Source: a virus
DNA: 64,000 nt
Reading direction: 5' to 3' (one strand)
Virus record (IMG/VR): IMGVR_UViG_3300021560_000013
Span: 32,001 to 96,000 of that record
The notes beneath the pieces are model-generated. The model was not told where the DNA came from, did not search any database, and saw only the letters and a program-made list of their open reading frames with translations. The position numbers and the translations under genes were made by a program. This document shows, piece after piece, positions 3,001-61,432 of the stretch. Each line of letters begins with the position of its first letter. The first letter of the stretch is position 1.

Positions 3001-3760
3001 GCTCGCTGACCGCCACCCGCCGTACGGCCACCAGGGCGCTGGCTGGGGGCTCGGTGCCTACGACTGCTCGTCGTACGTGAGCACGGTCATGGACGCGGCG
3101 GGGATCTGGCCGAAGTGGGCGTACTACACGGCGGCGCAGCCGATCAACCAGCACACCGATCCGGGGCCGGGCCAGTACATCACGATCGGCACCTGGGGCA
3201 CGTCCGGCCAGCAGGCCCACACGATGATGTCGATCATGGGGAACTATTTCGAGTCGGGTGGTGGAGATGGAGGCCCGCACCGTGACTCCGGGTGGTCGCA
3301 GAAGTTCGACCAGTACCGCCATCCGCACGGCTACGCCACTGGCGGTCTGCTCGGAAAGAACCGCGCGGGCTCGCGCCGCAACCTGTTCCTGAACAAGAAC
3401 CCAGGGCGCGGTCGGCCCGGCTACCAGCCGACGCAGGCCGAGGCCGCTGAGATCCAGCGCAACCAGGCGGCGATCAAGATGCAGTTCGCCAAGGAGCACG
3501 GCTACGGGCTCGGTGGCTACATCCCGTGGTTCGCCGGTGGCGGCGACTTCGTGGCGCGGCGTCCGACCGTGATCGGCGTGGGCGACCGGCCCGGCGGCGA
3601 GCGGGTCACCGTGTCACCGACCACCGGACCCGGCTCGCTCGGCGGTCACCCGCTGCACGTCGAGATCCACCACATCGAGGTGAACCGCGAGGGTGACATC
3701 CAGAAGATCGTGGACCGCGAGCTTCAGCTGCTCGCGGCGGGAATCGAGAACAGGCTCTGA
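2..3760 (+). CDS. Tape measure protein (5'-partial) with phage-tail-lysozyme and NlpC/P60-like domains
   Basis: Frame is open from the window edge. Long Gly/Ala-rich helical protein; AGILGNAMQESGLNP lysozyme motif (~2400-2690); YDCSSYVS...HTMM peptidase motif (~3050-3240); lies upstream of baseplate genes. Confidence 0.9.
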   Translation, partial: FQGTIAGLGSVFRHNLPGMMTGVVNILKALGNILKEIAPTLDKTGGLFAKLTGNFEQWTRSKTGKSRIHEMTEAFKEWGRLLGQVARLIGAVMGQGIKPGTSEIGKWADKIGKLADSLRGGGKQKSIADFFQKGIDTANNLWPVLKNLATALMGIYNVWKPLGSVVQTVLKAFPPGVVGALSLAYVGLKGGIGAAKGFKGVASFFGKDRDGSSERKSLYVIVTNMFRGGGSGAGGSSWPGGGSKWEKDAMKAEERAAGKGGFFGRFFRGKGGVRGKLGGLIGFGETAAEDTRLVGGLGKVSGFGGRFLDRIKGHFGIGGAKLEEDVGKSFLSRIFRGGGVRGFGGLTGGLSGMAAMMALPVAEKFIPKALRDSPVGKIGGRLFGGFLQGGTAGLAITGANMLLPSSITQSGIGRTATRIGMGAATGATFGSMFGPLGTGIGALAGGGLAAAAPLLKHVPVLGAIAGFFGGGGGPSDAQKKSEAGMQSFQNRIKDLKGNLDKLSPKQLMALKDWAFKLASDPNLKKYKDWLVSTGDQLQDPSKGLRGALAKVQPAFQATASVAGQSLQAIQSVAKSTTAQIQATLPSGSAAATLALSQNYQQAAADVQTSMQNGVVANTAAGIAAVNGLMAKAFQQLGFTGPQSKNLAGMLAKGGSAGAAAQNVLNVAQAGKAQAATGQGGAAAGVSTSQFLSAATTSYAALPGKHAAGGRLPGPAMGDHIPLYGKGGGLLGIADGGELVVNKHTENRVNAKLAAFGTTLGREVSNETRPHSRAFYQGGRIPTFQTGGVTGEVDAFFSAAGFNKIAIAGILGNAMQESGLNPNTAGGGMWQQISNFGQGTGGSLQAQMVKMLSQIGGLRAALNSASSPGAAATIFEQGFEKAGIPALANRIKYANEAYSGQLGGTITGGTGGAAAGLAPISIPVIIAPQVGGAGATQALGQTNVNAYTGVANAIVQAAGAQINATRAATITGGGGGAGPSFVAAGGPTPPQVQYALQAANALADRHPPYGHQGAGWGLGAYDCSSYVSTVMDAAGIWPKWAYYTAAQPINQHTDPGPGQYITIGTWGTSGQQAHTMMSIMGNYFESGGGDGGPHRDSGWSQKFDQYRHPHGYATGGLLGKNRAGSRRNLFLNKNPGRGRPGYQPTQAEAAEIQRNQAAIKMQFAKEHGYGLGGYIPWFAGGGDFVARRPTVIGVGDRPGGERVTVSPTTGPGSLGGHPLHVEIHHIEVNREGDIQKIVDRELQLLAAGIENRL

Positions 3761-31979: not shown

Positions 31980-32009
31980 GCTCACTCCTCGGTCGGGGGT
32001 TGCACTACA

Positions 32010-46834: not shown

Positions 46835-47853
46835 TGGCGAAGATCGCTTACGAGGACAAGAGGTTCAGCGCCGGGTCGCTTGAGACGATCGCCCAGGCGA
46901 ACGAGATCCTGGAGGAGTACGAGAAGCTGGGCTACGACCTGACGCTGCGGCAGTTGTACTACCAGTTCGTCGCCAGGGACCTGATCCCGAACACTGAGCG
47001 CAGCTACAAGCGGCTCGGCTCGATCGTCAACGACGCGCGCATGGCCGGGTACATCGACTGGGACCTGCTGGTGGATCGCACCCGCAACGTCCGCTCAGTC
47101 CCGCACTGGGACGACCCGGCGGACATCATCGAGGCGACCGCCCGGAGCTTCAAGGTGGATCGCTGGGACAAGCAGAACGACTACGTGGAGGTGTGGATCG
47201 AGAAGGACGCGCTCGTCGGCGTGATCGCCGGAATCTCGACCCGGCTCGACGTGCCGTACTTCGCCTGCCGGGGCTACAACAGCCAGAGCGAGCAGTGGCG
47301 CGCCGCGCAGCGGCTGCTCCAGCGGGTGATCGACGGCAAGAACGTCACGATCATCCACCTGGGCGACCACGACCCGTCGGGGATTGACATGACCCGCGAC
47401 AACGACGACCGGCTGAAGCTGTTCGTCCGCCAGGACTACCTGCGCCACAAGGTCGGGGAGCTTGAGCACTGGGACACGCTCAGCGACGCGAACCAGGACG
47501 CGACACTGCGCCAGTGGCTGCGCGAGATGCCCACCGTCGAGGTGCGCCGGATCGCGCTGAACATGGACCAGATCAACCAGTACAACCCGCCGCCGAACCC
47601 GGCGAAGATGTCCGACAGCCGGGCGCACGGGTACGTCGAGGAGTACGGCTACGAGTCCTGGGAGCTTGACGCGCTCCCGCCGGACGTGCTGGAGAACCTG
47701 GTCCGCGACAACGTGGAGAGCCTGATCGACGTGCCCGCGTGGGACGCCGAGGAGCAGCGCGAGCACGACGGCCAGCGGTTGCTGCGGCTCGCGAGCGAAC
47801 GCTGGGACGAGATCGTGGAGAGCCTGAACGGAGACAACCCCGAGGAGGACTGA
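46834..47853 (+). CDS. Topoisomerase VI-A/Spo11-like TOPRIM protein
   Basis: TLRQLYY (winged helix with Tyr); VWIEKDAL; RGY; LGDHDPSG; WELDAL. Confidence 0.7.
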   Translation: MAKIAYEDKRFSAGSLETIAQANEILEEYEKLGYDLTLRQLYYQFVARDLIPNTERSYKRLGSIVNDARMAGYIDWDLLVDRTRNVRSVPHWDDPADIIEATARSFKVDRWDKQNDYVEVWIEKDALVGVIAGISTRLDVPYFACRGYNSQSEQWRAAQRLLQRVIDGKNVTIIHLGDHDPSGIDMTRDNDDRLKLFVRQDYLRHKVGELEHWDTLSDANQDATLRQWLREMPTVEVRRIALNMDQINQYNPPPNPAKMSDSRAHGYVEEYGYESWELDALPPDVLENLVRDNVESLIDVPAWDAEEQREHDGQRLLRLASERWDEIVESLNGDNPEED

Positions 47854-48326
47854 TGTCCGGCTTCACCCTGAACAGCGTCACGCTGTCCGGCACCCTGACG
47901 CGCGATCCAGACGTGCGCACCACGCCCGGCGGCACCGAGGTGTGCAAGCTGCGGATCGCGGTCAACGGGCGCAAGAAGAACAACTCGACCGGCGAGTGGG
48001 AGGACGTGCCGAACTTCTTCAACGTCACCCTGTTCGGCGGGCTCGGCGCATGGCTCGGGAACAACATCAAGAAGGGCCAGGACATCGCCGTGCTGGGCGA
48101 GCTTCGCTGGCACGAGTGGACGACCGACGACGGCGGCAAGCGCGAGGCCGTCGAGGTGATCGCCAACTCGATCATGCCGCGCGGCAAGAGCAACGGCGGC
48201 GGCAGCAGTAGCAGTTCGAGCTACGACGACTCCGACATCCCCGCCGACACGTCCGGCCTGCCGCCGGTGGGAGCCACCGCCAGCACTGCCGTGAACCCGG
48301 CAGACGATGACGACATCCCGTTCTGA
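47853..48326 (+). CDS. ssb: Single-stranded DNA-binding protein
   Basis: LNSVTLSGTLTRDP.VR.T..G; C-terminal DDDDIPF. Confidence 0.95.
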   Translation: MSGFTLNSVTLSGTLTRDPDVRTTPGGTEVCKLRIAVNGRKKNNSTGEWEDVPNFFNVTLFGGLGAWLGNNIKKGQDIAVLGELRWHEWTTDDGGKREAVEVIANSIMPRGKSNGGGSSSSSSYDDSDIPADTSGLPPVGATASTAVNPADDDDIPF

Positions 48327-49114: not shown

Positions 49115-49278
49115 CCGCCGGTGAGTACCTGACGGATGGCAGCAAGGCGCTCCTGTACGTGCTCGAAGTGGATCCGCGCGGACGCGCGATGGTCGAGGAC
49201 GTGAGGACGCTGGAGGTGTACCGGATCAAGGTGACGGCGCTCGACGGCTGGCGGGTGGTGACTCCGGATGGCGCGTGA
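49084..49278 (+). CDS. Hypothetical protein
   Basis: AGGAG RBS; overlaps the portal start. Confidence 0.5.
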   Translation: MAVAARPRELTAGEYLTDGSKALLYVLEVDPRGRAMVEDVRTLEVYRIKVTALDGWRVVTPDGA

Positions 49279-51316
49279 CAACAGCGGCCTGATCGGGCGC
49301 GCCCGAGAGATCCTGGAGGAGCGCACCGGCAAGACGATCATCGACCAGGAGCACCTGAGCCTGCTGGAGGCCAGCGATGTCGAGCGCCGGGCGATGCAGA
49401 AGGAACTGGACCTGCTCGGCTGGTACGTGCTCGACTACATCGGCGGGCAGCCGCAGGAGGTGAAGGCGACCGAGCGCCGCAAGATGGCGGCGCAGGCGCG
49501 CATGGTCTGGGTGCAGGATCCGGTGGCCGGGGCGAACGTCGATCTCAGCTGCCAGTTCATCTTCGGACGTGGCGTCCCCAAACCGAAGGCGGCGGACGAC
49601 AAGGTCCAGGAAGTCATTGACGAGGCGTGGGACGACCCGGACAACAAGGCGACGCTGACCACGTTCCCGGCGCAGACGGCGCTCTGCACCGACCTGGTGC
49701 TCCAGTCGAACCTGTTCATCCTGTTCTTCGAGGGCGACGACGGCAAGGTCAAGCTCGGGATCCTCGACCACGACTCGGTGGAGGACGTGGTCCGCGACTC
49801 GAACAACCGGCTGCGCGTCCTGTACTACGTCGCGCGCCGCCGCGAGTACGGCTGGGACTACGTCATGGACCGGCCCGACATCAAGGCCCAGATGGCGCAG
49901 CAGGACCCGCGCAAGCCGCGCGTCATGTACTACCAGGCGCTCGCGGCGACCGACCCGGAGACCGGCGAGCTTGACTCCCAGGACGACGCCTGCCCGCCCG
50001 AGAAGCTGGGCGAGGGGCTCGTCTACCACATCGCGATCAACCGGGGCTCGGAGCAGATCTTCGGCATCCCGGCGATGCGCCGGATCGTGAAGTGGATGGC
50101 CGCGCTGAACGACTTCATGGCGGCGCGCGTGGACCTGACGCAGGCAGCTGCCGCGTTCATCATGCGCCGGACGGTGCAGGGCTCGCCGCAGCAGGTGGCG
50201 GCGATCGCGGCGAAGGCGATCTCGCGCCGGTCGGGCCTGGCGGCGACATCGGTGGACGACCCGACGATGGGCACCGTGCAGGCCGGGCCGAGGCCGGGCT
50301 CGATCCTGAACGAGAACCAGGGCGTCAAGACCGAGCCGTTCGCCGTGTCAACGCAGGCGGCGCAGGCGGCGCAGGACGCGCAGATGATCCGCTCGCAGAT
50401 CTCCTCCGCGACGTGGCCGCAGCACTACCTCGGGGACCAGAGCAACGCGAACCTGGCGACGGCCACCGCGCTGGAGCTTCCAGTAGTCAAGAAAGTAGAG
50501 GCGTACCAGGAACTGTTCGAGGGCCTGTTCCGCACGTTCATCGACCGGGCGATCCAGAACGCCGTGGACAACGGCACGCTGCCGACCGAACTGACCGATG
50601 AGGAGCGCGCCAAGCTCAAGGCGAAGAAGCCCGAGAACCAGACGCCGGGCTCGCCGCCGCCGGACGCGCCCGGCGCGCCGCTGCAGTCCGAGCCGCCCGC
50701 GTCGATGACAGACGTGCCGTCGCAGAACGGCTCGACGCAGCTGAGCGCAGGCTACGAGGGTCAGACCGAGGACGAGGAGGACACCGAGCGCGACCTGAGC
50801 TACGAGTTCGCGATGCCGTCGCCACTCAAGCGCCAGATGGCCGACCTGATCAACTCGATCGCGAACCTGGCGCGCACGTTCGACCCGAACAACACCAACC
50901 TCGAACTGAGCCGGACGCTGCTCGCTGTCGCGCTCGGCCAGGGCCTGGAGCTTGCCGATCCCGCAGCTGCCGTCGATCGGATCCTGCCCGAGGGCTACGT
51001 CGATCCGATGCTGGCCGCGCAGATGGGCGGCGGTGGCGGTGGATCGCCCGGCCAGGTCCCACCGCCGCCGCCGCTGATCCCGACCGGCGACACCGGCCCG
51101 AACATGTTCGGCCCCGGCGGACCGCCGCCCGGCGCAGGACCCGAGCCGAACCAGAACCCGTACGGCGCGCAGGGCTGGAGCAGCAACTACCAGGACAACC
51201 AGGGCCAGCCGATGTACCAGTCGCGCGACGAGGAGCTAGACGCGATCTGGGAGCAGGAGCTTGCCGAGGTGGTCGAGGGGTTCCTGACCGCAGCCGCCCA
51301 GAACGGGCGCGGCTAA
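49268..51316 (+). CDS. Portal protein
   Basis: Size; position before MuF; AR.VW..DPVA...FIFGRGV, FGIP, P.HYLGD..N.N.ATA motifs; Pro/Gly-rich tail. Confidence 0.8.
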   Translation: MARDNSGLIGRAREILEERTGKTIIDQEHLSLLEASDVERRAMQKELDLLGWYVLDYIGGQPQEVKATERRKMAAQARMVWVQDPVAGANVDLSCQFIFGRGVPKPKAADDKVQEVIDEAWDDPDNKATLTTFPAQTALCTDLVLQSNLFILFFEGDDGKVKLGILDHDSVEDVVRDSNNRLRVLYYVARRREYGWDYVMDRPDIKAQMAQQDPRKPRVMYYQALAATDPETGELDSQDDACPPEKLGEGLVYHIAINRGSEQIFGIPAMRRIVKWMAALNDFMAARVDLTQAAAAFIMRRTVQGSPQQVAAIAAKAISRRSGLAATSVDDPTMGTVQAGPRPGSILNENQGVKTEPFAVSTQAAQAAQDAQMIRSQISSATWPQHYLGDQSNANLATATALELPVVKKVEAYQELFEGLFRTFIDRAIQNAVDNGTLPTELTDEERAKLKAKKPENQTPGSPPPDAPGAPLQSEPPASMTDVPSQNGSTQLSAGYEGQTEDEEDTERDLSYEFAMPSPLKRQMADLINSIANLARTFDPNNTNLELSRTLLAVALGQGLELADPAAAVDRILPEGYVDPMLAAQMGGGGGGSPGQVPPPPPLIPTGDTGPNMFGPGGPPPGAGPEPNQNPYGAQGWSSNYQDNQGQPMYQSRDEELDAIWEQELAEVVEGFLTAAAQNGRG

Positions 51317-51465: not shown

Positions 51466-53253
51466 ATGCTACGACGCATCATGCTGGCGGTAGGGGCTAC
51501 TCTGCTCGCGATCGCCATCACAGTGCCGCTGGTCGCCTCCGGGCAGACCGGCACACCGTGGGTCAAGACTCACGGGAAGGGACGCGTAGTCAGCGTCAAG
51601 CGCAACCCGAAGCAGTGCGGGGAGCGGGGAGGCTGGCAGTTCAATCTCAGCGTGAAGCCGTGGAAGCTGATCGCGTGCAACGGAGCAAGGGGGCTGACCG
51701 GCGCTGCCGGTCCACAGGGTGCCAACGGTGCCGCTGGGGCTACTGGGGCCACCGGAGCTACTGGAAGCGCTGGAGCTACTGGTGCTCAGGGTCCGCGTGG
51801 GCTCACGGGGCTCCAGGGGATCCAGGGCCTCACGGGCGCGACCGGCCCGGCGGGTGCAAACGGCACTAACGGGACCAACGGCCCGAAGGGCGACACTGGC
51901 GCGAAGGGCGACCAGGGGCCGCAGGGTGTGCCGGGCGATCCCGGACAGCCTGGGTTCTCGGCCTACCAGCTGTGGCTGGCGGGGCCTGACGGCATCCTCC
52001 ACACCAGCGACGACAACGTCGGCTCGGTGGCGGACTTCATGCTGTCGCTAGTCGGGGACCGGGGACCGCAGGGTCCGGCTGGGCCGAATGGGCCGCAGGG
52101 TCCGCAAGGCAATCCCGGCGCTGCCGGTCAGAAGGGTGACACCGGACCGCAGGGTCCGAACGGACCGCAGGGTCCGACCGGGAACCCCGGCCACGATGGC
52201 GCTACTGGTCCTCAGGGGCCGAAGGGCGATCAGGGTCAGAAGGGGGACCAGGGCCTCACCGGCCAGAACGGTCCCCAGGGTCCGCAGGGTAACCCCGGTG
52301 CCGCTGGTCAGAAAGGTGACACTGGTGACCAGGGTCCGAAGGGTGACCAGGGCTCGAAGGGCGATCCTGGCGTGAAGGGCGACAAGGGCGATCCGGGCAC
52401 GAACGGTGCCAATGGTGCCGACGGCGCGAACGGCGTCGCGGGTGCCAACGGCAAGGACGGTCAGTCCGCGTTCGAGATCTGGGTCGCGCTCGGCGCTCCC
52501 GGCTACACCGGGACGGACGCCCCGAACCACGGCGACTTCATCGCCACGCTGAAGGGCGAGAAGGGTGACAAGGGTGCCACGGGTGACCAGGGCGCGAAGG
52601 GCGACCAGGGTGCCAACGGTGCCAAGGGCGACACCGGCGCTCAGGGTCCGGCGGGCTCGAACGGCGTCAACGGCCTCGACGGCAACAACGGGTCCAAGGG
52701 CCTGTCGGCCTGGGAGCTTTACCAGTCTCAGGGTGGCGTGCTCGACCTGGACAGCTGGCTGGCGTCGCTGCACGGCTCCAACGGCGCGAAGGGTGACACC
52801 GGCGCGCAGGGTCCGCAGGGCAACCCCGGCCACGACGGTGTGGACGGCAAGGACGGCGCTCCGGGTCAGACCGGCGCGACCGGCCAGCAGGGTGCTCCGG
52901 GTCAGCAGGGCAAGCAGGGTGACACCGGCGCGACCGGTGCCGACGGCGCTCAGGGACCGCAAGGCCCCAAGGGCGACCAGGGCGACCCCGGCGCGCAGGG
53001 TCCGAAGGGCGACAACGGTCCCCAGGGACCGCAGGGCAACCCTGGTGCCGCTGGTCAGAAGGGCGACACGGGTGCCACCGGCCCGCAGGGTCCGGCTGGT
53101 CCGCAAGGGCAGCCCGGCCACGACGCGGTGACCGCTTCGACGGTCGTCTGCATCGTCACCAACGGCGGGGGGAACAATCCCAAGCTCGCCATCGGTGCGA
53201 CCGCGTGTGCCGGACAGGCCACGATCACCCTGGCGGCTCCCGCCGGGTCGTAA
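51466..53253 (+). CDS. Secreted collagen-like protein (moron)
   Basis: Signal-peptide-like N-terminus; long Gly-X-Y tracts broken by three SA(Y/F/W)(Q/E)(L/I)(W/Y) motifs. Confidence 0.85.
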   Translation: MLRRIMLAVGATLLAIAITVPLVASGQTGTPWVKTHGKGRVVSVKRNPKQCGERGGWQFNLSVKPWKLIACNGARGLTGAAGPQGANGAAGATGATGATGSAGATGAQGPRGLTGLQGIQGLTGATGPAGANGTNGTNGPKGDTGAKGDQGPQGVPGDPGQPGFSAYQLWLAGPDGILHTSDDNVGSVADFMLSLVGDRGPQGPAGPNGPQGPQGNPGAAGQKGDTGPQGPNGPQGPTGNPGHDGATGPQGPKGDQGQKGDQGLTGQNGPQGPQGNPGAAGQKGDTGDQGPKGDQGSKGDPGVKGDKGDPGTNGANGADGANGVAGANGKDGQSAFEIWVALGAPGYTGTDAPNHGDFIATLKGEKGDKGATGDQGAKGDQGANGAKGDTGAQGPAGSNGVNGLDGNNGSKGLSAWELYQSQGGVLDLDSWLASLHGSNGAKGDTGAQGPQGNPGHDGVDGKDGAPGQTGATGQQGAPGQQGKQGDTGATGADGAQGPQGPKGDQGDPGAQGPKGDNGPQGPQGNPGAAGQKGDTGATGPQGPAGPQGQPGHDAVTASTVVCIVTNGGGNNPKLAIGATACAGQATITLAAPAGS

Positions 53254-53374: not shown

Positions 53375-56365
53375 GTGGCGGTCCAGCCCGCTGATCAGCA
53401 GCCCCAGCCGGTCCATCCGGATGTCCAGCGGCTGATCGACGCCGCGCAGATCGGCGCGACGATCCAGGCGGGCGTTGCCGTGTCGAAGGCGGCGGTGACA
53501 GCCGGGCCAATCGCGGTGACCGTGCTGCCACGCGCCGCAGCGGAGATCGTAGGTGCGCCGGTCGAACTGGCGGCGCACGCCGTCAAGTGGGCGGTCATCC
53601 TCCGCGTCCTGCGCCGCCTGTTCCGGCGGCATCACATGGAGACCGCCAGCTGGCTGGAGACGCAGCTGCGCAAGCAGTTCCCCGACCTGGATCCGGCGGT
53701 GATCCGGCAGGCCGTCGAGCAGGAGTTGAAGTTCGAGCGCGCGTTCCAGGCGAAGGCGCTCAAGCGCGCCGAGGCGGACTTCCACGCGGCGGGCCAGCTG
53801 CCGACACCCGAGGCGCAGGCGACGCGCGTCCAGCAGATCCTGAACCGCGAGAAGCACTACAGCCAGCTGCGCGAGCAGGCGCTGCTCGACCGGGCGATGC
53901 GCTTCTGCCACAACGCGACGGTCAAGGCGATCTCGCCGGACGGCGCGAAGTGGGTGCTCGGCCAGCGCAAGACGCACACGCCGGGCTGCGTCGCGATGGC
54001 GGGCAAGAACTGGCCGTGGCCGGTGCTCGACGTGATCAACCCGCCGGTCCACACCGGGTGCGGCTGCGAGCTTCGACCGCTCAGGCCGGGCGACACCGTC
54101 CCGCCAGTCGGCACGGCGATGAACCTGGCCCGCCAGGCGATGGCCCTGGAGGAGGCTGTAAGGGCCGCTGCGCCCGGCGAGATCGAAGCCTGGCTCCAGG
54201 GTCAGGTGGTGCGCCCCGTGGTCGCCAGGGCGCTCCAGCGGCTCCAGGAGGGCACGTACGAGGAGGCGCTCCACCCGCGTGGCCGTGGCGGCAAGTGGAT
54301 CGGCAAGCTGCTCAGCAGCCCCGGCTTCACGCAGCGCCGCCAGGCGCACGAGGTCCACGACGCGTTCCGGCGCGGTGAGGACGTGAGCGTGAGCAAGGTG
54401 GTCGATTCGCGCGCCGAGGCGACCAAGCAGTTCAAGACCGACTTCCTGGCAGCGATGCGCGAGGCCCGGCCCGGCTACGGCACCGGCAAGGTCCAGATCG
54501 CGGAAGGCTCGGTCGATGATCCCGAACTGATCAAGCGCGTCCAGCAGGCCGCTGAGTGGTTCCCGAAGGAATGGATAGACAGGGCCGGACCGCTCCGCGT
54601 GGTCGAGTCCAAGAGCCCCGGCGTCTACGCGCTGCGCGCCGAGGTGGCGAAGGACCACATCTCGACCATCGCGCTCCGCAAGGACTCGTGGGAGAAGAAC
54701 ATCGTCCACGAGATGATGCACTGGCTAGAGGAGAAGAACCCCGAGGTTCACAAGGCGGCGCAGGAGTTCCTCGACCGCCGCACCGAGGGCCAGGAGATCG
54801 AGCCGCTGATCAACGGCGCGCCGCACGAGGAGGTGAAGGAGGGCGGCTTCGTTGACCCGTACATGGGCAAGATCTACAACCACCCGTCCACCGAAGTGCT
54901 GACGATGGCGATGGAGGGGCTGGTCGCAGGGGCGATCCGCGTCGAGGACGACCCGGACCACTTCGCGATGCTGCTGAGCACGCTGACCGGCCAGAAGGTC
55001 GAGCCGTCCGAAGTCGGCACGTTCGGCCAGGGCTTCGACCTGAGCGGACTGAAGACGGCCAAGGCCAAGACGGCGGCGACAGCTGCCGCCCGCGCGATCG
55101 AGACGGCGACCGGCGTCGTTCACCCGGTGAAGTTCACTCACCTGGATCCGGACGATCCGGCGACGGCGCGCTCGCTCCCGAGCGGGCACATCGCGGTGGA
55201 CGAGAGCACCAGCCCGCACTTCCAGATCTCCGCGATCGTCCACGAGTACGCGCACAACATGGACCGGTCGGTGCTCGGCTCCGAGGACGACTGGTTCACC
55301 CAGCACGCGGACGAGTCCGGCCCGCTCTACAAGGCGCTGATGGCGTCGCCCACCGTCCAGAAGATCAAGAACGACGAGGTGGAGATCCTGAAGGGCGACC
55401 CGCGCACGACGGCGCAGCTGCTCCAGGCCCGCGAACTGTTCGCCCGAGCGTTCGAGCAGTACGTCGCGATGCGCGGCGGCAACGAGCGGCTGCGCGAGAA
55501 CCTGCGCAAGCTCCAGGGCGACCGGCTGCTCAGCTTCCAGCAGTGGCAGGACGACGAGTTCAAGCCGATCGCCGCCGAGATGGACAAGATCGTGCGCCAG
55601 CAGCACGCCGTCCAGGAGAGCAAGTGGACCGAGTGGCTCCACCCGCGTGGACGCGGCGGTCAGTGGGTCGATGCGATCCAGCACGTCAGCAAGGAGATCG
55701 AGCAGCCCGAGGCGCACGAGGGCTTCACCGGCGAGGACTTCGCCAGGGGGCTGGACGGCTTCACGCACGGCGACCTGACGGCGATGCGCATGAACCGCAC
55801 CGACACGCAGAACCTGTTCGGGGAGGTCTGGCTGAACGTGTTCCACAAGGGCCGGGGCGAGCCCGTCGGCATGGCGCGCGTCACGATCAAGCCGCCGACC
55901 AACCAGGGCGTCCGCTCGATCGAGTTCAACAACATCGTGCTCAAGGAGGCCGAGCAGAACCAGGGGTTCGGCAAGGCGTTCACCGATCACCTGTTCAAGG
56001 TGGCGCGCGAGGGCGGCGTGGACAAGATGGAGATCGAGGCGGTGTCCGTCGGCGGCTACGCGTGGGCCAGGCGAGGGTTCGTGTGGACCGGCGACAAGGG
56101 CGCGCAGCAGCGCGCGATCCTGGCCGACGCGAAGGAGAAGGGCCGCTACCAGGCGATCCAGGAGCACGTTCGGCAGAAGCTCCTGGAGGAGCTTGACCGC
56201 AAGATCGCTGCCGGTGAGTTCACCAGCGAGGCCGAGCTTGCCGCGTTCGGCCACGGCGAGTACTGGAAGGACGAGGACGGCAACCGCACCTGGCTGGGCA
56301 AGGAGTTGATGATGGGCTCGCACTGGGAGGGCGACCGCCCGATCACCGTCACCACTAGCGCATGA
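53375..56365 (+). CDS. MuF-like head morphogenesis protein fused to two zincin metallopeptidase domains and a GNAT domain
   Basis: HTPGC..MAG...PPVHTGCGC; HEMMH...EVLTM; HEYAH...ELFARAFEQY; QNQGFGK...VGGYAWARRGF. Confidence 0.8.
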   Translation: MAVQPADQQPQPVHPDVQRLIDAAQIGATIQAGVAVSKAAVTAGPIAVTVLPRAAAEIVGAPVELAAHAVKWAVILRVLRRLFRRHHMETASWLETQLRKQFPDLDPAVIRQAVEQELKFERAFQAKALKRAEADFHAAGQLPTPEAQATRVQQILNREKHYSQLREQALLDRAMRFCHNATVKAISPDGAKWVLGQRKTHTPGCVAMAGKNWPWPVLDVINPPVHTGCGCELRPLRPGDTVPPVGTAMNLARQAMALEEAVRAAAPGEIEAWLQGQVVRPVVARALQRLQEGTYEEALHPRGRGGKWIGKLLSSPGFTQRRQAHEVHDAFRRGEDVSVSKVVDSRAEATKQFKTDFLAAMREARPGYGTGKVQIAEGSVDDPELIKRVQQAAEWFPKEWIDRAGPLRVVESKSPGVYALRAEVAKDHISTIALRKDSWEKNIVHEMMHWLEEKNPEVHKAAQEFLDRRTEGQEIEPLINGAPHEEVKEGGFVDPYMGKIYNHPSTEVLTMAMEGLVAGAIRVEDDPDHFAMLLSTLTGQKVEPSEVGTFGQGFDLSGLKTAKAKTAATAAARAIETATGVVHPVKFTHLDPDDPATARSLPSGHIAVDESTSPHFQISAIVHEYAHNMDRSVLGSEDDWFTQHADESGPLYKALMASPTVQKIKNDEVEILKGDPRTTAQLLQARELFARAFEQYVAMRGGNERLRENLRKLQGDRLLSFQQWQDDEFKPIAAEMDKIVRQQHAVQESKWTEWLHPRGRGGQWVDAIQHVSKEIEQPEAHEGFTGEDFARGLDGFTHGDLTAMRMNRTDTQNLFGEVWLNVFHKGRGEPVGMARVTIKPPTNQGVRSIEFNNIVLKEAEQNQGFGKAFTDHLFKVAREGGVDKMEIEAVSVGGYAWARRGFVWTGDKGAQQRAILADAKEKGRYQAIQEHVRQKLLEELDRKIAAGEFTSEAELAAFGHGEYWKDEDGNRTWLGKELMMGSHWEGDRPITVTTSA

Positions 56366-56389: not shown

Positions 56390-59300
56390 ATGGATTGGGC
56401 GACAGCAGCAGCAACCGTGAGCGACAGGGCAAACCTGTCCGAGCCACCCGACGCGCCCGGCGATGACTGGGACTTCTGGGACGAGGTGCAGAAGCTCGTT
56501 GACCCCGAGCTTCAGGAGGCATACGCAGCAGAGCTTCACCCGCGCGATCGCGCCGGGCGCTGGATGGAGAAGCTGGGGCTGAACCGCCTGCACGAGGTGG
56601 GCGGCGCACCGCGCGACGACCTGCTCGGCAAGATCCCGAAGGACATCGACTACATGGCCGTCGAGTCACCCGAGGAGATCCAGCGCAAGGTCGAGGCAGC
56701 TGGAGGCAAGGCCGAGCCGCTGATGGTCCGAGACCGGCTCGTGGGCGTTCGCGCGACGCACCCGGATCTGCCGCCCGGCGGCGTCGAGATCGTGCCGCCG
56801 CGCGTCGAGCAGTCCACCGGCGAGGGCCGACACGACTTCGCGATCGTGCCTCATCCCGGCCTGGGCACCGGCGCGAGCCCGGAGCACATGATCTCCGACG
56901 ACGCGCAGCGCCGGGACTTCACCGTCAACGCGATGTACCACGACACGGCGACCGGCGAGACGGTCGATCCGACCGGCCACGGCGTCGAGGACGCGCGCAC
57001 GCGCACGCTGCGCATGGTCCACGACCAGAGCTTCCAGGAGGACCCGCTGCGGATGCTGCGCGGCGCACGGTTCGCCTCACAGCACAACCTGACGCCGGAC
57101 CCGGCGACGTTCGCCGCGATGCAGCGCGACTCCGGAGGCATGACCGCGCTCACGCAGAAGGGTGTGAGCGGCACCGTCCAGGACGAGATGCGCAAGCTCC
57201 TGATGGGCGACAACCCCGGCAAGGGCCTGCGACTCATGCGCGACACCGGCATGCTGCAGCAGCTGCTGCCCGAGCTTGCGCCGATGGTCGGGTTCGACCA
57301 GCGCTCCGTCTACCACGAGCACACCGTGGATGAGCACACGTTCGAGGTGGTTGACGAGTTGGCGAAGGCGGGCGCGAGCTACGAGGCACGGCTCGCGGCG
57401 CTGTTCCACGACTCGGGCAAGCCAGCGACCGCGAACCTCAAGCCGGACGGCCACTTCCGCTTCCACTCGCACCCCGAGCACGGCGATCACCAGGACGTGG
57501 GAGCGCAGATCGCGCACGACACGCTGAGGCGGCTGAACTACCCGAAGGACACGCTCGACCACGTCACCGGCCTGGTGCGCGAGCACATGCTCACCGCCGT
57601 CACCAAGCCGACGCCGGTCAAGGCCAGGCGGCTCCGAGCCCGCTTCTCGGACAAGTTCCTGACCGACCTGCTCGACCACAAGGCCGCTGACATGGAGGGC
57701 CACGGCGACATGGTGGCGAAGGACCGCGAGGGGATCGGCAAGCTCCGCGCGCTGCTGGCCGAGAACGCCGACGCGCCGCGCTCGCTGAAGGATCTGAACG
57801 TCAACGGGCACGACCTGATGGCCGAGGGAATCGCGGAGGGTCCGGTGATCGGCCAGACGCTCAACCAGCTACTACGCGAGGTCGTGGACAACCCGGACCT
57901 GAACCGGCGCGAGTGGCTGCTGAACCGGGCTGCGAAGCTGGCGGCGCTGAGCACCCAGGAGTGGGCCGCACTGGAGGAAGCGAACATCTACGAGGAGGCG
58001 CTCCACCCGCGCGATCGACTGGGCAAGTGGATGTCCAAGGAGTTCGGTGAGCAGCTGGCCCGGCCCGGCAACAAGCGCAGCGGGAAGAAGCCGACGCCGT
58101 ACAGGCCCGCGCAATGGACCGACACCGGCCAGGACTTCCAGACGATGGCGCACGAGGCCGCGCAGCTGGTTCACCCCGAGGGGACGCCCGAGGAGCACGC
58201 CGAGATCGCCAGGGCCGTGACTGCCGACAGGCCACCGCCGAGGGGCGTGAGCAAGGAGGCGAAGAAGGCGGCGAAGAAGCTGCGCGACAAGAGCGCGCCC
58301 GAGGGCCGCTGGGGCCAGTACATCTACCGGCTGCACGGCATCGCCGCCGCCGCTCACGCCGACCAGACCGACCGGAGCGGCAAGCCGTACATCCAGCACG
58401 TCGAGGCGGTGGCTGACTCCGTCTCGGATGAGGCCAAGCCGGTGGCGCTGTTCCACGACGCGCTGGAGGACGCCGAGCTAACGCCCGAGGTGCTGAAGGC
58501 GGCGCTGACCGAGCCGCACGTAATGACCCCCGAGCAGGCGCAGACGATCGTTGACGCGATCGGGCTGCTGACCCACGACGACGCGGAGTCCTACGGCGAG
58601 TACATCGACCGGCTCGCGAACGCGCCGGGCAAGGCGGGCGAGCTTGCACGCGAGGTGAAGCGCGCCGACCTGCAGCACAACCTGGGCCGCATGACCCCGG
58701 AGATCGTCCGCGACGCGCCGCAGCTGCAGGAGCGCTACGGGAAGGCGCTGCGGACGCTCGCGCCCGAGCGCACGCCGATCTCGCAGCGCGGCGCGCCGCT
58801 GAACGTGAACAACCTGGACGAGGCGACGGTGCTGGCCCGGCTGCGCAAGCTGTACGAGGCGAGTGAGCAGGCGGGCACGGCTGAGATCGAGAAGCACTGG
58901 TACCAGCAGGCGCACGACGAGATCGCCGCGCTGGCCGAAGAGCACGACGTTGACCCGCATGTGCTCGCCGCGATGGTGGCCGCGACATCGCCGCAGCTGA
59001 CCTGGCGTCACGAGTTCAAGGACGGGCGTGTCAAGTACCCGAACCTCGAACTGGCGGTCAACGCGATCAGGCTCGCGCGCCGCTACCCGGACGAGCCCGC
59101 GCCGAAGCTGGTGGACCGGCTGGTCGAGGCGTCCACGAAGCGCACGCCCGAGGAGCGCAAGGCCGGACCGAGCGAGCTTGGTGGGCTGGGCGAGTCGATC
59201 CTCAAGGCGATCCGGATCTACCGGGGCGAGGATCCCGAGCGGGTCCTCGGCGCGCCCAAGACGCGCTCGTTCGCGAACAACCTGACCTACCCGGACCAGG

Positions 59301-59560
59301 CGACGACGGTCACGATGGACGAGCACATGGCCCGCGCGGTGATCGGCCAGGTCAGCAAGGAGGGCTACGGCGGCGGCGCAGGCGTGTTCAACGAGACCGC
59401 CGAGGGGTCGGGCTACACCTGGAGCGCCAACATGGTCAAGCGGCTGGCCGAGGAGAAGGGCGTCCTCCCGCATCAGGCGCAGGCGATCGTCTGGGTGGCG
59501 CAGAAGGCGCTCGCGGACGCCGCCGAGGCCGAGGCCAAAGCCGCCAAGGCGAAGGGCTAA
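56390..59560 (+). CDS. Polyvalent protein: CCA-adding/poly(A)-polymerase-family nucleotidyltransferase with HD domain, SpoT/Mesh1-like HD hydrolase, and a C-terminal helical (glycosylase-like) domain
   Basis: VGGAPRD.LLG..PKDID, RRDFTVNAM, EDPLRMLRGARF, HT...FHDSGK; AHADQTDRSGKPYIQH...FHDALED...VKRADLQHN; WY..A...ATSPQ...PKT.SF..N...VTMDEHM...QAQA..W. Confidence 0.85.
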   Translation: MDWATAAATVSDRANLSEPPDAPGDDWDFWDEVQKLVDPELQEAYAAELHPRDRAGRWMEKLGLNRLHEVGGAPRDDLLGKIPKDIDYMAVESPEEIQRKVEAAGGKAEPLMVRDRLVGVRATHPDLPPGGVEIVPPRVEQSTGEGRHDFAIVPHPGLGTGASPEHMISDDAQRRDFTVNAMYHDTATGETVDPTGHGVEDARTRTLRMVHDQSFQEDPLRMLRGARFASQHNLTPDPATFAAMQRDSGGMTALTQKGVSGTVQDEMRKLLMGDNPGKGLRLMRDTGMLQQLLPELAPMVGFDQRSVYHEHTVDEHTFEVVDELAKAGASYEARLAALFHDSGKPATANLKPDGHFRFHSHPEHGDHQDVGAQIAHDTLRRLNYPKDTLDHVTGLVREHMLTAVTKPTPVKARRLRARFSDKFLTDLLDHKAADMEGHGDMVAKDREGIGKLRALLAENADAPRSLKDLNVNGHDLMAEGIAEGPVIGQTLNQLLREVVDNPDLNRREWLLNRAAKLAALSTQEWAALEEANIYEEALHPRDRLGKWMSKEFGEQLARPGNKRSGKKPTPYRPAQWTDTGQDFQTMAHEAAQLVHPEGTPEEHAEIARAVTADRPPPRGVSKEAKKAAKKLRDKSAPEGRWGQYIYRLHGIAAAAHADQTDRSGKPYIQHVEAVADSVSDEAKPVALFHDALEDAELTPEVLKAALTEPHVMTPEQAQTIVDAIGLLTHDDAESYGEYIDRLANAPGKAGELAREVKRADLQHNLGRMTPEIVRDAPQLQERYGKALRTLAPERTPISQRGAPLNVNNLDEATVLARLRKLYEASEQAGTAEIEKHWYQQAHDEIAALAEEHDVDPHVLAAMVAATSPQLTWRHEFKDGRVKYPNLELAVNAIRLARRYPDEPAPKLVDRLVEASTKRTPEERKAGPSELGGLGESILKAIRIYRGEDPERVLGAPKTRSFANNLTYPDQATTVTMDEHMARAVIGQVSKEGYGGGAGVFNETAEGSGYTWSANMVKRLAEEKGVLPHQAQAIVWVAQKALADAAEAEAKAAKAKG

Positions 59561-59580
59561 CTCACGATGTGCGCTATAAT
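59558..59580 (+). promoter_or_regulatory. Palindrome + consensus -10 TATAAT (leaderless)
   Basis: TAACTCACGATGTGCGCTA-TAAT, 7 nt before ATG 59588. Confidence 0.8.
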
Positions 59581-59587
59581 GAAGGGT

Positions 59588-61432
59588 ATGGATCCAGTTG
59601 CCCCCATCACCCCGGACGACCCGGTGAGCATCGACACCTTCGAGGCCGTGATGGCCGCGATGGACGACCTGATCGGTGGCGACGGCACGCTCGCGGAGGC
59701 GTTCAACCCGAACCAGCCGCGCTTCCCGAAGGGCCACGCGAAGGCGGGCCAGTGGCGACCCAAGCTCGTGACCGGCGCAGGCGGGCTCGCGCCCGGCCAC
59801 CTCGATCGCGACATCCGGAAGATCAACGACCTGATCGAGCAGGGGACCGGCGGCGGCACCGTCGTGAACGTGTCACCCGGCAGCCTGGACGTGATCGGCC
59901 AGCAGGTCGAGAAGGTGGCGCTGAAGTACTCGGCGCGCAAGGTCTACGAGAAGCGTCTGGAGGACATCCGCGCCGAGCGCACGGCGATCCAGGACGCCAA
60001 GTGGGACGCGTACGAGAAGGCGTGGCGCGCCGCGCCGCCGTTCGAGGAGCGCGACCCGCTGGAGCCCGAGGACTTCATCGACCCGAAGGACGCCGCCCGG
60101 CTGAAGGAGATCGCGGAGGAGGAGATCAAGCTCGTCAAGCAGCGTGACTTCGCTGACCGCGACGCGATGCTCGGCGTGCTCCAGAAGATCCGCCCGATGG
60201 GCGGCAAGCTGAACGTCGCGCCGTGGACCGAGAACAAGATCGAGGCGCGCACCGACAACGAGATCGAGAAGGCGTACCGCGAGCAGGAGCTAGCGCGAGG
60301 AGCGGGCGCGAAGGTGCTGATGCAGCGCGACCTGGAGGCCAACCTCAAGCAGGTGCTGAAGCTGATCCCCAAGGCGTGGCTGGACGACACCAACAGCAAG
60401 GGCACCGTCAACTTCCTGTTCTCCGACACCCGCGCGTACGCCGACACGCGCGAGGAGACGCCGCCCGGCCAGTGGGACGAGTGGAAGGGTGCGCGCAAGG
60501 CGCTCGACACGCTGGCGGGCGAGGGCTACAAGCTGCTGGGCCGCGACAAGAAGGTGAGCACGTTCCTGATGCTCGAAGCGCCGAACGGCGACGTGGTGGC
60601 GCTGCGCTCCGACGGCTCGATCCCGAAGGGCGTCGGTGAGTTCTCCGACACCGCGCTGGTGCTCAGCAAGGAGGGCACATGGACGCTGCCCGGCTTCACC
60701 GAGCACGCGACGGCCAAGGACGCGAAGAAGTTCGTGACGCCGATGAAGACGCTCCCGCCCGAGCCGACGATCCCGTCCCCGTCGAGCGCGATGGGCCAGA
60801 ACTGGGATCCGTACGAGCGCATGCGCACCGCCGTCGCCAAGCGCGAGCAGGAGGGCTGGAAGTTCGTCGGCATGCGCGGCAAGTGGGCGACGCTGCGCAA
60901 GGGCGACGAGGAGATCTCGCTGAACTGGGCGGGCGACCCGCTGACCAAGCAGGTCGGCCAGGGCGGCAAGGACCGGGGTCTCGACCCGCTGAACCCGTAC
61001 GTGGTGATCCCAGCGCCGCCGGTGCCGAGCCAGACGAACACGACGATCAAGATCGACCCGAGGCCCGGCGACAAGGACACGCTGCTGCACGAGCTATGCC
61101 ACCGCATGGAGGTGGTCTACGGCGAGCAGAACAACGCGGGCTACCACCCGCTGTCGATGGCGATGCACAGCTTCTTCAACAGCCGCACCAAGGGCGAGGA
61201 GACGCAGAAGCTCCGGGACCTGTACCCCGGCTACGCCTACGAGGGCCACGAGATCTCCAAGCCGGACAAGTTCATCGACGGCTACTGCGGCAAGATCTAC
61301 AAGGGCGAGAGCACGGAGCTACTGACGATGGGCCTGCAGTACCTGTTCTTCCCCCGCTTCGGCTCAAACCGTGACGTGAACAAGGATCCGGCGTACCGGC
61401 GGCTGATCCTCGGAGTGATGGCGACGCTATGA
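59588..61432 (+). CDS. Protein with a C-terminal zincin metallopeptidase, paralogous to the first MuF peptidase module
   Basis: HELCHRME...RT.GE...F.D.Y.GKIY...TELLTMG matches HEMMHWLE...RT.GQ...F.D.Y.GKIY...TEVLTMA. Confidence 0.75.
   Translation: MDPVAPITPDDPVSIDTFEAVMAAMDDLIGGDGTLAEAFNPNQPRFPKGHAKAGQWRPKLVTGAGGLAPGHLDRDIRKINDLIEQGTGGGTVVNVSPGSLDVIGQQVEKVALKYSARKVYEKRLEDIRAERTAIQDAKWDAYEKAWRAAPPFEERDPLEPEDFIDPKDAARLKEIAEEEIKLVKQRDFADRDAMLGVLQKIRPMGGKLNVAPWTENKIEARTDNEIEKAYREQELARGAGAKVLMQRDLEANLKQVLKLIPKAWLDDTNSKGTVNFLFSDTRAYADTREETPPGQWDEWKGARKALDTLAGEGYKLLGRDKKVSTFLMLEAPNGDVVALRSDGSIPKGVGEFSDTALVLSKEGTWTLPGFTEHATAKDAKKFVTPMKTLPPEPTIPSPSSAMGQNWDPYERMRTAVAKREQEGWKFVGMRGKWATLRKGDEEISLNWAGDPLTKQVGQGGKDRGLDPLNPYVVIPAPPVPSQTNTTIKIDPRPGDKDTLLHELCHRMEVVYGEQNNAGYHPLSMAMHSFFNSRTKGEETQKLRDLYPGYAYEGHEISKPDKFIDGYCGKIYKGESTELLTMGLQYLFFPRFGSNRDVNKDPAYRRLILGVMATL

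Follow-up and report, generated by a model that had tools for sequence, protein, structure and literature searches.

Here we describe a gene in a 64,000-nucleotide stretch of viral DNA, positions 32,001 to 96,000 of IMG/VR record IMGVR_UViG_3300021560_000013 (hereafter the window, whose numbering is used unless the whole contig is named), which belongs to an uncultured phage contig of 110,271 bp with 68% GC, an estimated completeness of 89% and many spurious open reading frames (ORFs). The gene, ORF B, lies in the head-morphogenesis block and encodes a polyvalent, or multi-effector, protein of the phage type, in which a leader of 45 amino acids (aa) is followed by two modules, each opened by a junction tag. 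Module 1, as judged from its motifs and domain matches, comprises all of a class II tRNA nucleotidyltransferase (CCA/A-adding type), including an intact HD phosphoesterase domain. In module 2, a small alarmone hydrolase (SAH) is linked to DUF7178, a divergent domain that resembles the HhH-GPD glycosylases. We favour, at about even confidence, the interpretation that ORF B is an injected kit, which would clear alarmones and/or the 3'-pyrophosphate of modified tRNA (tRNA-PP) and rebuild the 3' ends of host tRNAs, the glycosylase-like domain being a passenger. The protein and its parts, all on the + strand, are the following.

56390..59560 (+): ORF B, the 1056-aa polyvalent protein P0001, a single ORF, supported as a gene by its third-position GC content and its relatives
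56390..56524 (+): conserved N-terminal leader (aa 1-45, starting MDWATAAA), common to the relatives that start here
56507..56566 (+): junction 1, LQEA-YAAE-LHPRDRAGRW (aa 40-59), found by motif search
56585..57289 (+): predicted class II nucleotidyltransferase head and neck (aa 66-300), from Pfam PolyA_pol and PolyA_pol_RNAbd and from NCBIfam
57299..57622 (+): predicted HD phosphohydrolase domain of the CCA enzyme (aa 304-411), from Pfam HD
57779..57925 (+): tRNA_NucTran2_2 tail domain (aa 464-512), Pfam 31.8 bits (cut-off 27)
57965..58033 (+): junction 2, LEEA-NIYEEA-LHPRDRLGKW (aa 526-548), from motif search and split relatives
58310..58759 (+): SAH-like HD domain (aa 641-790), matching structure 7smg in sequence and predicted fold
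58817..59524 (+): DUF7178, HhH-GPD-glycosylase-like domain (aa 810-1045), from Pfam (E 3e-21), a structural model and VIA-align

ORF B is a real gene, conserved among its relatives. It fills exactly the interval given above from an ATG start, and its GC content at third and second codon positions (0.92 and 0.44) is the codon signature of genuine genes in a genome of 68% GC. Its architecture is kept in about 12 metagenomic relatives at 59-77% identity. Pfam assigns the PolyA_pol head to aa 70-208 (59.4 bits, cut-off 23), PolyA_pol_RNAbd to 263-298, HD to 313-411, tRNA_NucTran2_2 to 464-512, a sub-threshold HD_4 to 652-705 and DUF7178 to 814-1038 (76.5 bits, cut-off 27), and PHROGs match a tRNA nucleotidyltransferase over aa 70-492 (E 3e-56) and a metal-dependent phosphohydrolase over aa 651-770 (E 3e-25). 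The fused form was not found in the collections that we searched: among 50,697 phage records, megablast with the gene as query gave no match and tblastn gave partial matches to solo CCA or solo HD proteins only, and 185,579 species genomes yielded nothing but cellular CCA enzymes, at 30-35% identity and from many phyla.

The initial annotation had proposed a complete class II nucleotidyltransferase with its HD domain, and Pfam, PHROGs and the invariant motifs all agree with this proposal. Module 1 has the pol-beta head, motifs A-D and the third carboxylate by which the class is defined. The motifs GGAPRD...DID, VEIVPPR, RRDFTxN, DPTGxG..D and EDPLRMLR are invariant in an alignment across eight relatives, the residues concerned being G71-G72...R75-D76, D85/D87, E133, R174-R175-D176, D193...D201 and E217-D218...R221. 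The HD domain passes the Pfam HD model (30.7 bits, cut-off 22) and reaches 27.4 bits with the HDIG model, for which the cut-off is 27.6; H316, H340-D341, H359, H361 and H399 are invariant in the relatives and compose a predicted HD metal-binding signature. The tRNA_NucTran2_2 tail and the intact HD repair domain have both been retained, according to Pfam.

Among the NCBIfam models, tRNA_CCA_actino (TIGR02692) is the top match with 155.8 bits against an equivalog cut-off of 438.8, and the E. coli Cca type (NF008137) and pcnB models score 129.4 (cut-off 451) and 89.6 bits, respectively. The transferase does not reach an equivalog-level score to a curated CCA model and, being so far under the cut-offs, it is a divergent member whose orthology to the housekeeping Cca is not established. 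The closest solved relative is the A-adding enzyme of Aquifex aeolicus (3wfo), aligned over aa 161-507 including the HD-like and tail regions, and the E. coli poly(A) polymerase (PAP; 3aqk) was also matched in the PDB sequence search, with an E value of 2e-13. The closest cellular proteins are full-length CCA-type enzymes of 30-35% identity, aligned over aa 71-515, from Firmicutes, Chloroflexota, Verrucomicrobiota and bacteria of the candidate phyla radiation (CPR); to our knowledge, PcnB-type polymerases are not found in these groups. We consider CCA or A addition more likely than poly(A) addition.

The second HD domain is separate from that of the CCA enzyme, and its early description as SpoT/Mesh1-like was borne out by both sequence and predicted fold. 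By sequence, it matches the 149-aa (p)ppApp hydrolase 7smg of B. caccae with a phmmer E value of 1e-9, ahead of the hydrolase domains of Rel/SpoT. When aa 539-807 were modelled with AlphaFold, at a predicted local distance difference test score (pLDDT) of 87.6, 7smg again came first in a Foldseek search of the second HD domain (E 3e-6, template modelling score 0.78-0.80); MESH1, the P. aeruginosa SAH, RelH and Rel/SpoT came next, and the remainder was at noise level. The SAH fold is accompanied by the H-x-x-Q, HD, ED and distal D/N motifs that characterize these enzymes, since AHxxQxD..GxPYIxH, LFHDALED and KRADLQHN are kept among the relatives (AHADQ, FHDALED and RADLQHN in ORF B). The domain misses the Pfam HD_4 gathering score (12.8 bits against 27.2), and the Pfam model by itself therefore does not assign it.

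SAH-like HD genes are not rare in phages, as solo forms were found in 261 phage records. The nearest phage relatives of the ORF B hydrolase are solo HD proteins encoded directly after the portal and MuF genes in pneumococcal prophages. The same portal/MuF/solo-HD layout has been described for MuF-Apk2 toxins with pppApp-hydrolysing immunity proteins (PMC12226406), and by analogy the pneumococcal solo HD proteins are probably (pp)pApp-hydrolysing immunity proteins. Another phage SAH, PaSpo of SSU5, was reported to strip the modification installed by toxic small alarmone synthetases (toxSAS) from tRNA and thereby to neutralise the toxSAS (10.1101/2024.07.05.602228; PMC9712102). The ORF B domain has the fold and catalytic motifs of 7smg, PaSpo, MESH1 and the Apk2 immunity proteins in common with them, and like the last of these it is phage-encoded, with its nearest phage relatives just after portal and MuF. 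However, the known SAHs are solo proteins of about 140-180 aa, whereas the ORF B hydrolase is a domain inside a larger protein, with a helical N-terminal extension of 90 aa and a fused DUF7178, and no cognate synthetase toxin was found in the ORF B phage.

The C-terminal DUF7178 (PF23802), which passes its gathering score with 76.5 bits against 27, had been described as a helical domain resembling HhH-glycosylase-like modules, and this holds at the level of the fold. A model built from 51 diverse members (pLDDT 89.3, predicted template modelling score 0.86) shows the two-lobed HhH-GPD fold and matches it over about 180 residues. The Foldseek search that the initial annotation had recommended returned nothing at E ≤ 0.001, with the glycosylase AGOG and the queuosine hydrolase Qng1 as weak leaders; the fold was resolved by VIA-align. 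Against 48,161 chains, its top 22 rows all belong to the HhH-GPD superfamily, at Z scores from 10.8 to 5.1: Tm1821 Ogg (10.8), AGOG (8.9), EndoIII (8.5 and 7.7), Qng1 (8.0) and, further down, MagIII, MutY, OGG1 and AlkA (5.1), with unrelated folds only beneath them.

K957, F961 and D977 are invariant across the 51 members. In the model, a short hairpin leads into the helix that K957 opens, and some 20 residues further on D977 caps the following helix, which is, as modelled, the HhH-GPD arrangement. An hhalign comparison with an EndoIII/MutY/AlkA alignment assembled from bacterial genomes gave a single weak segment (E 0.095, low probability), in which K957, D977 and H979 fall on the Lys, Asp and His of EndoIII; in this weak alignment, an invariant Lys that begins the second helix of the hairpin and an invariant Asp-x-His some 20 residues later coincide with the catalytic Lys and Asp of EndoIII. 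An hmmsearch of the DUF7178 profile against PDB sequences gave a chance match only. DUF7178 is thus predicted to share its fold with EndoIII, Ogg, AGOG, MutY and AlkA and with Qng1/DUF2419 (Z up to 10.8), but it has no significant sequence-profile link to the HhH-GPD glycosylases and is without an Fe-S cluster.

The DUF7178 family, with 1277 representative clusters at E ≤ 1e-3, is almost exclusively viral and occurs either solo (about 200 aa) or within giant proteins; an ESM Atlas search yielded DUF7178 clusters only. Its fusion partners include the portal, MuF with Tad3 and topoisomerase IB, ADP-ribosyltransferases, and RadC with InPase. The 1145-aa protein P0048 consists of MuF, the Thoeris inhibitor Tad3, DUF7178 and a topoisomerase IB catalytic core; here a known anti-defence domain shares a cargo-type protein with DUF7178. 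Solo homologues in 35 mycobacteriophages were labelled 'glycosylase' or 'N-glycosylase' by their depositors, and DUF7178 is not mentioned in the literature that we searched.

The two modules of ORF B are delimited by a tag of the form [LV]xE-x-[YFW]-x-E-x-LHPR-[GD]-R-x-G-x-W. The window contains four copies, confined to ORF B (aa 50 and 539) and to the preceding large gene of the head block, ORF A (aa 300 and 756). Junction 1 precedes the CCA module in nearly all homologues with an intact N-terminus. At junction 2, the split relatives P0016 and P0020 have one protein that stops and a next that starts. The leader is present in every relative that begins at the ORF B start, including P0014, P0018 and P0020, which have no CCA module, and it would serve in targeting to the capsid or the portal. 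Beyond the leader the relatives vary: they lack the CCA module, are split at junction 2 or carry an extra module. This extra module, of about 170 aa before the CCA enzyme in some relatives, has two H-x-S/T motifs, like a 2H phosphoesterase; this identity is a guess, for which Pfam gave no match at E ≤ 10.

Modules are exchanged among the relatives exactly at the tags, and the inserts include 2H phosphoesterase, GNAT, cytidylate kinase and HicA domains. In distant homologues the tag is kept before the CCA module and the partners are GNAT, HicA or cytidylate kinase; P0015, P0021 and P0023 are examples of such tagged CCA cassettes, the cytidylate kinase being that of P0015 and HicA being a toxin domain. 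The kinase could provide CTP on the spot for CCA synthesis and, together with the Pfam-verified 2H phosphoesterase of P0031, it fits an RNA-3'-end and nucleotide theme. P0031 (2123 aa) combines the MuF-like N-terminus of ORF A, 2H, an HExxH module, GNAT, the alarmone hydrolase (interrupted by an insertion of about 150 aa) and DUF7178, with four tags in between; cargo modules of the ORF A and ORF B types are thus naturally fused in it.

The head-block genes that surround ORF B are the following.

49268..51316 (+): portal protein, the anchor of the head block (phrog_10963, E 2e-29)
53375..56365 (+): ORF A, with a MuF-like N-terminus, a tag, a module with two HExxH motifs, a second tag and a GNAT module
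59567..61432 (+): ORF C, the third large head-block protein (PHROG minor-head-protein matches at aa 502-594)

The gene order runs from the large terminase (37149) through the portal, a collagen-like insert, ORF A, ORF B and ORF C to an M15-like peptidase and a GH24 lysozyme, and farther around the contig come the genes for capsid, decoration, sheath and tail proteins. The placement of the gene in the head module by the initial annotation is therefore correct. According to the IMG/VR loci from which the gene contexts of the relatives were taken, the portal, ORF A, ORF B and ORF C are syntenic in three phages of 122-125 kb; the portal is 77-81% identical in the related phages and the gene order downstream of it is preserved. 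A collagen-repeat ORF (51466-53253), between portal and ORF A, has no counterpart in the three relatives, where ORF A directly follows the portal, and looks like an insertion specific to the ORF B genome.

ORF A has PHROG minor-head-protein matches, a Pfam GNAT domain, a PPVHTGCGC motif and HExxH at aa 445 and 623. It is conserved in the relatives only over aa 1-309 and 745-995, showing that its middle module has been exchanged exactly at the tags; the HExxH motifs sit in this swapped module. ORF C has HELCH, an HExxH motif, at aa 508 and a degenerate tag, LAEAF...PR...G..AGQW, near aa 42-63, which suggests that it belongs to the same cargo set. The HExxH regions of both proteins give PHROG minor-head-protein matches and may be zincin-like peptidases of the kind thought to process polyvalent proteins. 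An ORF of 497 aa at contig positions 21768-23261, just upstream of the decoration and major capsid genes, has no Pfam or PHROG family and, by its position, could be a scaffold or prohead protease.

We next consider the substrates. No tRNA or tmRNA gene was detected in the 110,271-bp contig by ARAGORN or the Rfam tRNA model, and relaxed ARAGORN thresholds produced noise only, so that the absence of tRNA genes noted earlier for the window extends to the whole contig; the complete relatives do carry one or two. Theirs lie at L102:3441-3514 and at L103:2773-2847 and 3435-3518 (related phages G001 and G002) and comprise a tRNA-Glu(CUC) with one or two odd tRNA-like genes that have long anticodon regions. 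The tRNA-Glu gene ends in G-CC-TTT and thus does not encode the final A of CCA. In the ORF B genome, the syntenic slot (3.6-5.5 kb of the contig) is present and holds no tRNA, and the transferase of this phage can therefore only work on host RNA. A RelA/SpoT synthetase domain was likewise found neither in the ORF B phage, including ORF A and ORF C, nor in three relatives. Given that both the tRNA gene and the synthetase are missing, the enzymes most likely act on host molecules. The possibility that the hydrolase confers self-immunity against a toxSAS or Apk toxin of the phage itself was rejected, because no RelA_SpoT domain was found in the phage or these three relatives.

Injected tRNA 3'-end repair together with alarmone removal is, on this evidence, a plausible function, for which we infer packaging, cleavage and all of the enzyme activities. 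ORF B would enter the prohead along with the MuF-like ORF A, may be cut at the LxE sites and would be ejected with the DNA, such that its enzymes would act ahead of any phage gene expression. The hydrolase may then remove (pp)pApp, (p)ppGpp and/or the 3'-pyrophosphate installed on tRNA by toxSAS, the HD domain and the nucleotidyltransferase may clean and rebuild damaged CCA ends of host tRNAs, and the glycosylase-like domain would have a separate target, DNA or a nucleotide. The initial annotation had arrived at a co-delivered tRNA-repair set. Its domain reading was right, and co-delivery finds contextual support in the position beside portal and MuF, the leader, the tags, the swapping of modules and the DUF7178 fusions. 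It had recognized neither the polyvalent class nor the tags, and a 'tRNA kit' leaves the glycosylase-like domain unaccounted for.

Several observations weigh against an injected repair kit. The complete relatives carry one or two tRNA genes in which CCA is not fully encoded, and the ORF B contig is about 89% complete; elsewhere in the family, the enzyme may have a conventional role in phage-tRNA maturation. The transferase sequence does not distinguish CCA, A-only and poly(A) activities, since the scores lie far below the equivalog cut-offs and the closest solved relative is an A-adding enzyme. If the pneumococcal relatives are immunity proteins, they point to free (pp)pApp as the target rather than tRNA-PP. 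A recognisable prohead protease was not found among the contig genes with Pfam or PHROG, and the species-genome scan did not point to a host, the CCA relatives being spread over many phyla. Finally, the solo DUF7178 genes of mycobacteriophages sit in the early right arm, outside the virion block; in Mycobacterium phage Scout, for example, the gene lies at 47390-47896 on the reverse strand, near the right genome end. This location suggests that DUF7178 is needed early in infection even where it is not packaged.

The first alternative, which we consider unlikely, is that ORF B is an unpackaged, cytoplasmic late protein, in which a tRNA-maturation enzyme and a housekeeping-type alarmone hydrolase are co-expressed and the head-block position is incidental. 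The incomplete CCA of the relatives' tRNAs (the G-CC-TTT ends) would give such an enzyme a substrate, and both of its parts exist separately, solo CCA enzymes being common in tRNA-rich phages and solo SAH-like HD genes occurring in the 261 records mentioned above. However, every bacterium owns a CCA enzyme able to serve one or two extra tRNAs, and the ORF B genome is free of tRNA genes even at the syntenic slot. Moreover, ORF B has its leader, tags and swapping of modules in common with ORF A, which contains MuF, the two proteins are merged in P0031, and DUF7178 has repeatedly been fused to portal and MuF.

A role of the hydrolase in inter-phage conflict appears rather improbable to us. Here it would destroy (pp)pApp made by the MuF-Apk2-type toxins of resident prophages or by competitor bacteria, and the CCA module would be an unrelated passenger. 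The top match in both structure and sequence is indeed a (p)ppApp hydrolase, and the nearest phage homologues, directly after portal and MuF in pneumococcal prophages, reproduce the Apk2 layout (PMC12226406). On the other hand, SAHs of this family are often promiscuous, PaSpo also clearing tRNA-PP (10.1101/2024.07.05.602228), and its constant association with CCA, 2H and cytidylate kinase modules in the relatives suggests that all of these have an RNA-end theme in common. This alternative overlaps the injected repair kit more than it excludes it.

Least probable is injected cargo for host takeover, by tailing of host RNAs after the fashion of a poly(A) polymerase or blocking of tRNA ends, which would hasten the decay of host RNA, shutdown of the stringent response and a glycosylase-like attack on host DNA: class II poly(A) polymerases and CCA enzymes are not separable by motifs, the pcnB model (89.6 bits) and E. 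coli PAP (3aqk, E 2e-13) are matched, one relative joins the CCA module to a HicA RNase toxin domain and host-modifying enzymes are frequent in polyvalent proteins (PMC5512222), but the CCA models outscore pcnB, the closest full-length cellular relatives come from the four bacterial groups named above, the tRNA-binding tail and the intact HD repair domain are retained, and the 2H and cytidylate kinase partners in relatives fit end healing and CTP supply.

The assignment of ORF B to the phage-type polyvalent proteins defined by Iyer, Burroughs, Anand, de Souza and Aravind in 2017 (PMC5512222) follows from the unrelated effector domains in one chain, the neighbourhood of virion genes (portal and MuF) and the heavy domain shuffling in relatives. 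Such proteins often carry host-modifying enzymes and have been proposed to be carried in the head and delivered into the cell along with the DNA (PMC5512222); for ORF B, the argument for packaging is its gene context. MuF, GNAT, 2H, ADP-ribosyltransferase, InPase, RadC and zincin-like HExxH domains are partners common to both. The main text of that study, however, contains no CCA-adding enzyme, no HD/SpoT-type hydrolase (only RelA/SpoT synthetases) and no glycosylase-like domain, the LxE...LHPRxRxGxW junction is not described there, and the 2H domains of polyvalent proteins were argued not to serve RNA repair (PMC5512222).

Compared with the bacterial CCA repair enzymes (E. coli Cca, NF008137; TIGR02692), the ORF B module has the class II head motifs A-E, the neck, the intact H...HD...D HD domain and the tRNA-binding tail in common, but it is only 30-35% identical to any cellular enzyme, below the equivalog cut-offs, and lies between tags in a 1056-aa cargo protein of a tRNA-less phage contig. 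In phage T4, the capsid-targeting sequences of the internal proteins and Alt are removed by the prohead protease at (L/I)xE. The putative ORF B signal resembles these in that a short peptide containing an LxE-type site, at the N-terminus or a junction, precedes putative head-borne enzymes. It differs in being repeated inside polyproteins and followed by the conserved HPR...G.W tag; a T4-like protease was not identified in the ORF B phage. Phage CCA enzymes have been proposed as RNA-repair factors from comparative genomics (PMC7824862), and our literature search found no experimental report of a phage CCA enzyme as a counter-defence.

Polyvalent proteins, phage CCA enzymes, phage alarmone hydrolases and the 'glycosylase' label of DUF7178 in actinobacteriophages were thus already known as kinds. 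What is new is the CCA enzyme as a tagged mobile cassette in head-cargo proteins, the linkage of this cassette to an alarmone hydrolase as well as, among the relatives, to 2H and cytidylate kinase, and the fold-level evidence, from modelling, for DUF7178 as a widespread HhH-GPD-like cargo domain. A bolder proposal, which we put forward tentatively, is that a packaged kit of a CCA/A-adding enzyme, an HD or 2H phosphoesterase and an SAH, assembled on 'cut here and package' tags and injected with the DNA, would neutralise the defences that act on the tRNA acceptor end (toxSAS such as CapRel or FaRel2, MenT/AbiE and HEPN tRNases) before the first phage gene is expressed, and that DUF7178 may be a large, hitherto unrecognised virus-borne family of HhH-GPD glycosylases with a new substrate.

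The known counters to tRNA-targeting defences, namely phage tRNAs, the T4 Pnk/Rnl pair and solo alarmone hydrolases, are expressed after infection. If our interpretation is true, a pre-packaged repair kit that acts at time zero would be a different strategy. The pairing of 2H with CCA modules revives the RNA-repair reading for the 2H domains of polyvalent proteins, and DUF7178, a mostly viral family of more than 1200 clusters, now has a testable HhH-GPD-like identity with candidate catalytic Lys and Asp residues. Because the tags mark the module borders, these giant proteins should be easy to dissect and to express piecewise, and the natural CCA-adding cassette that moves between cargo proteins is a testable resource.

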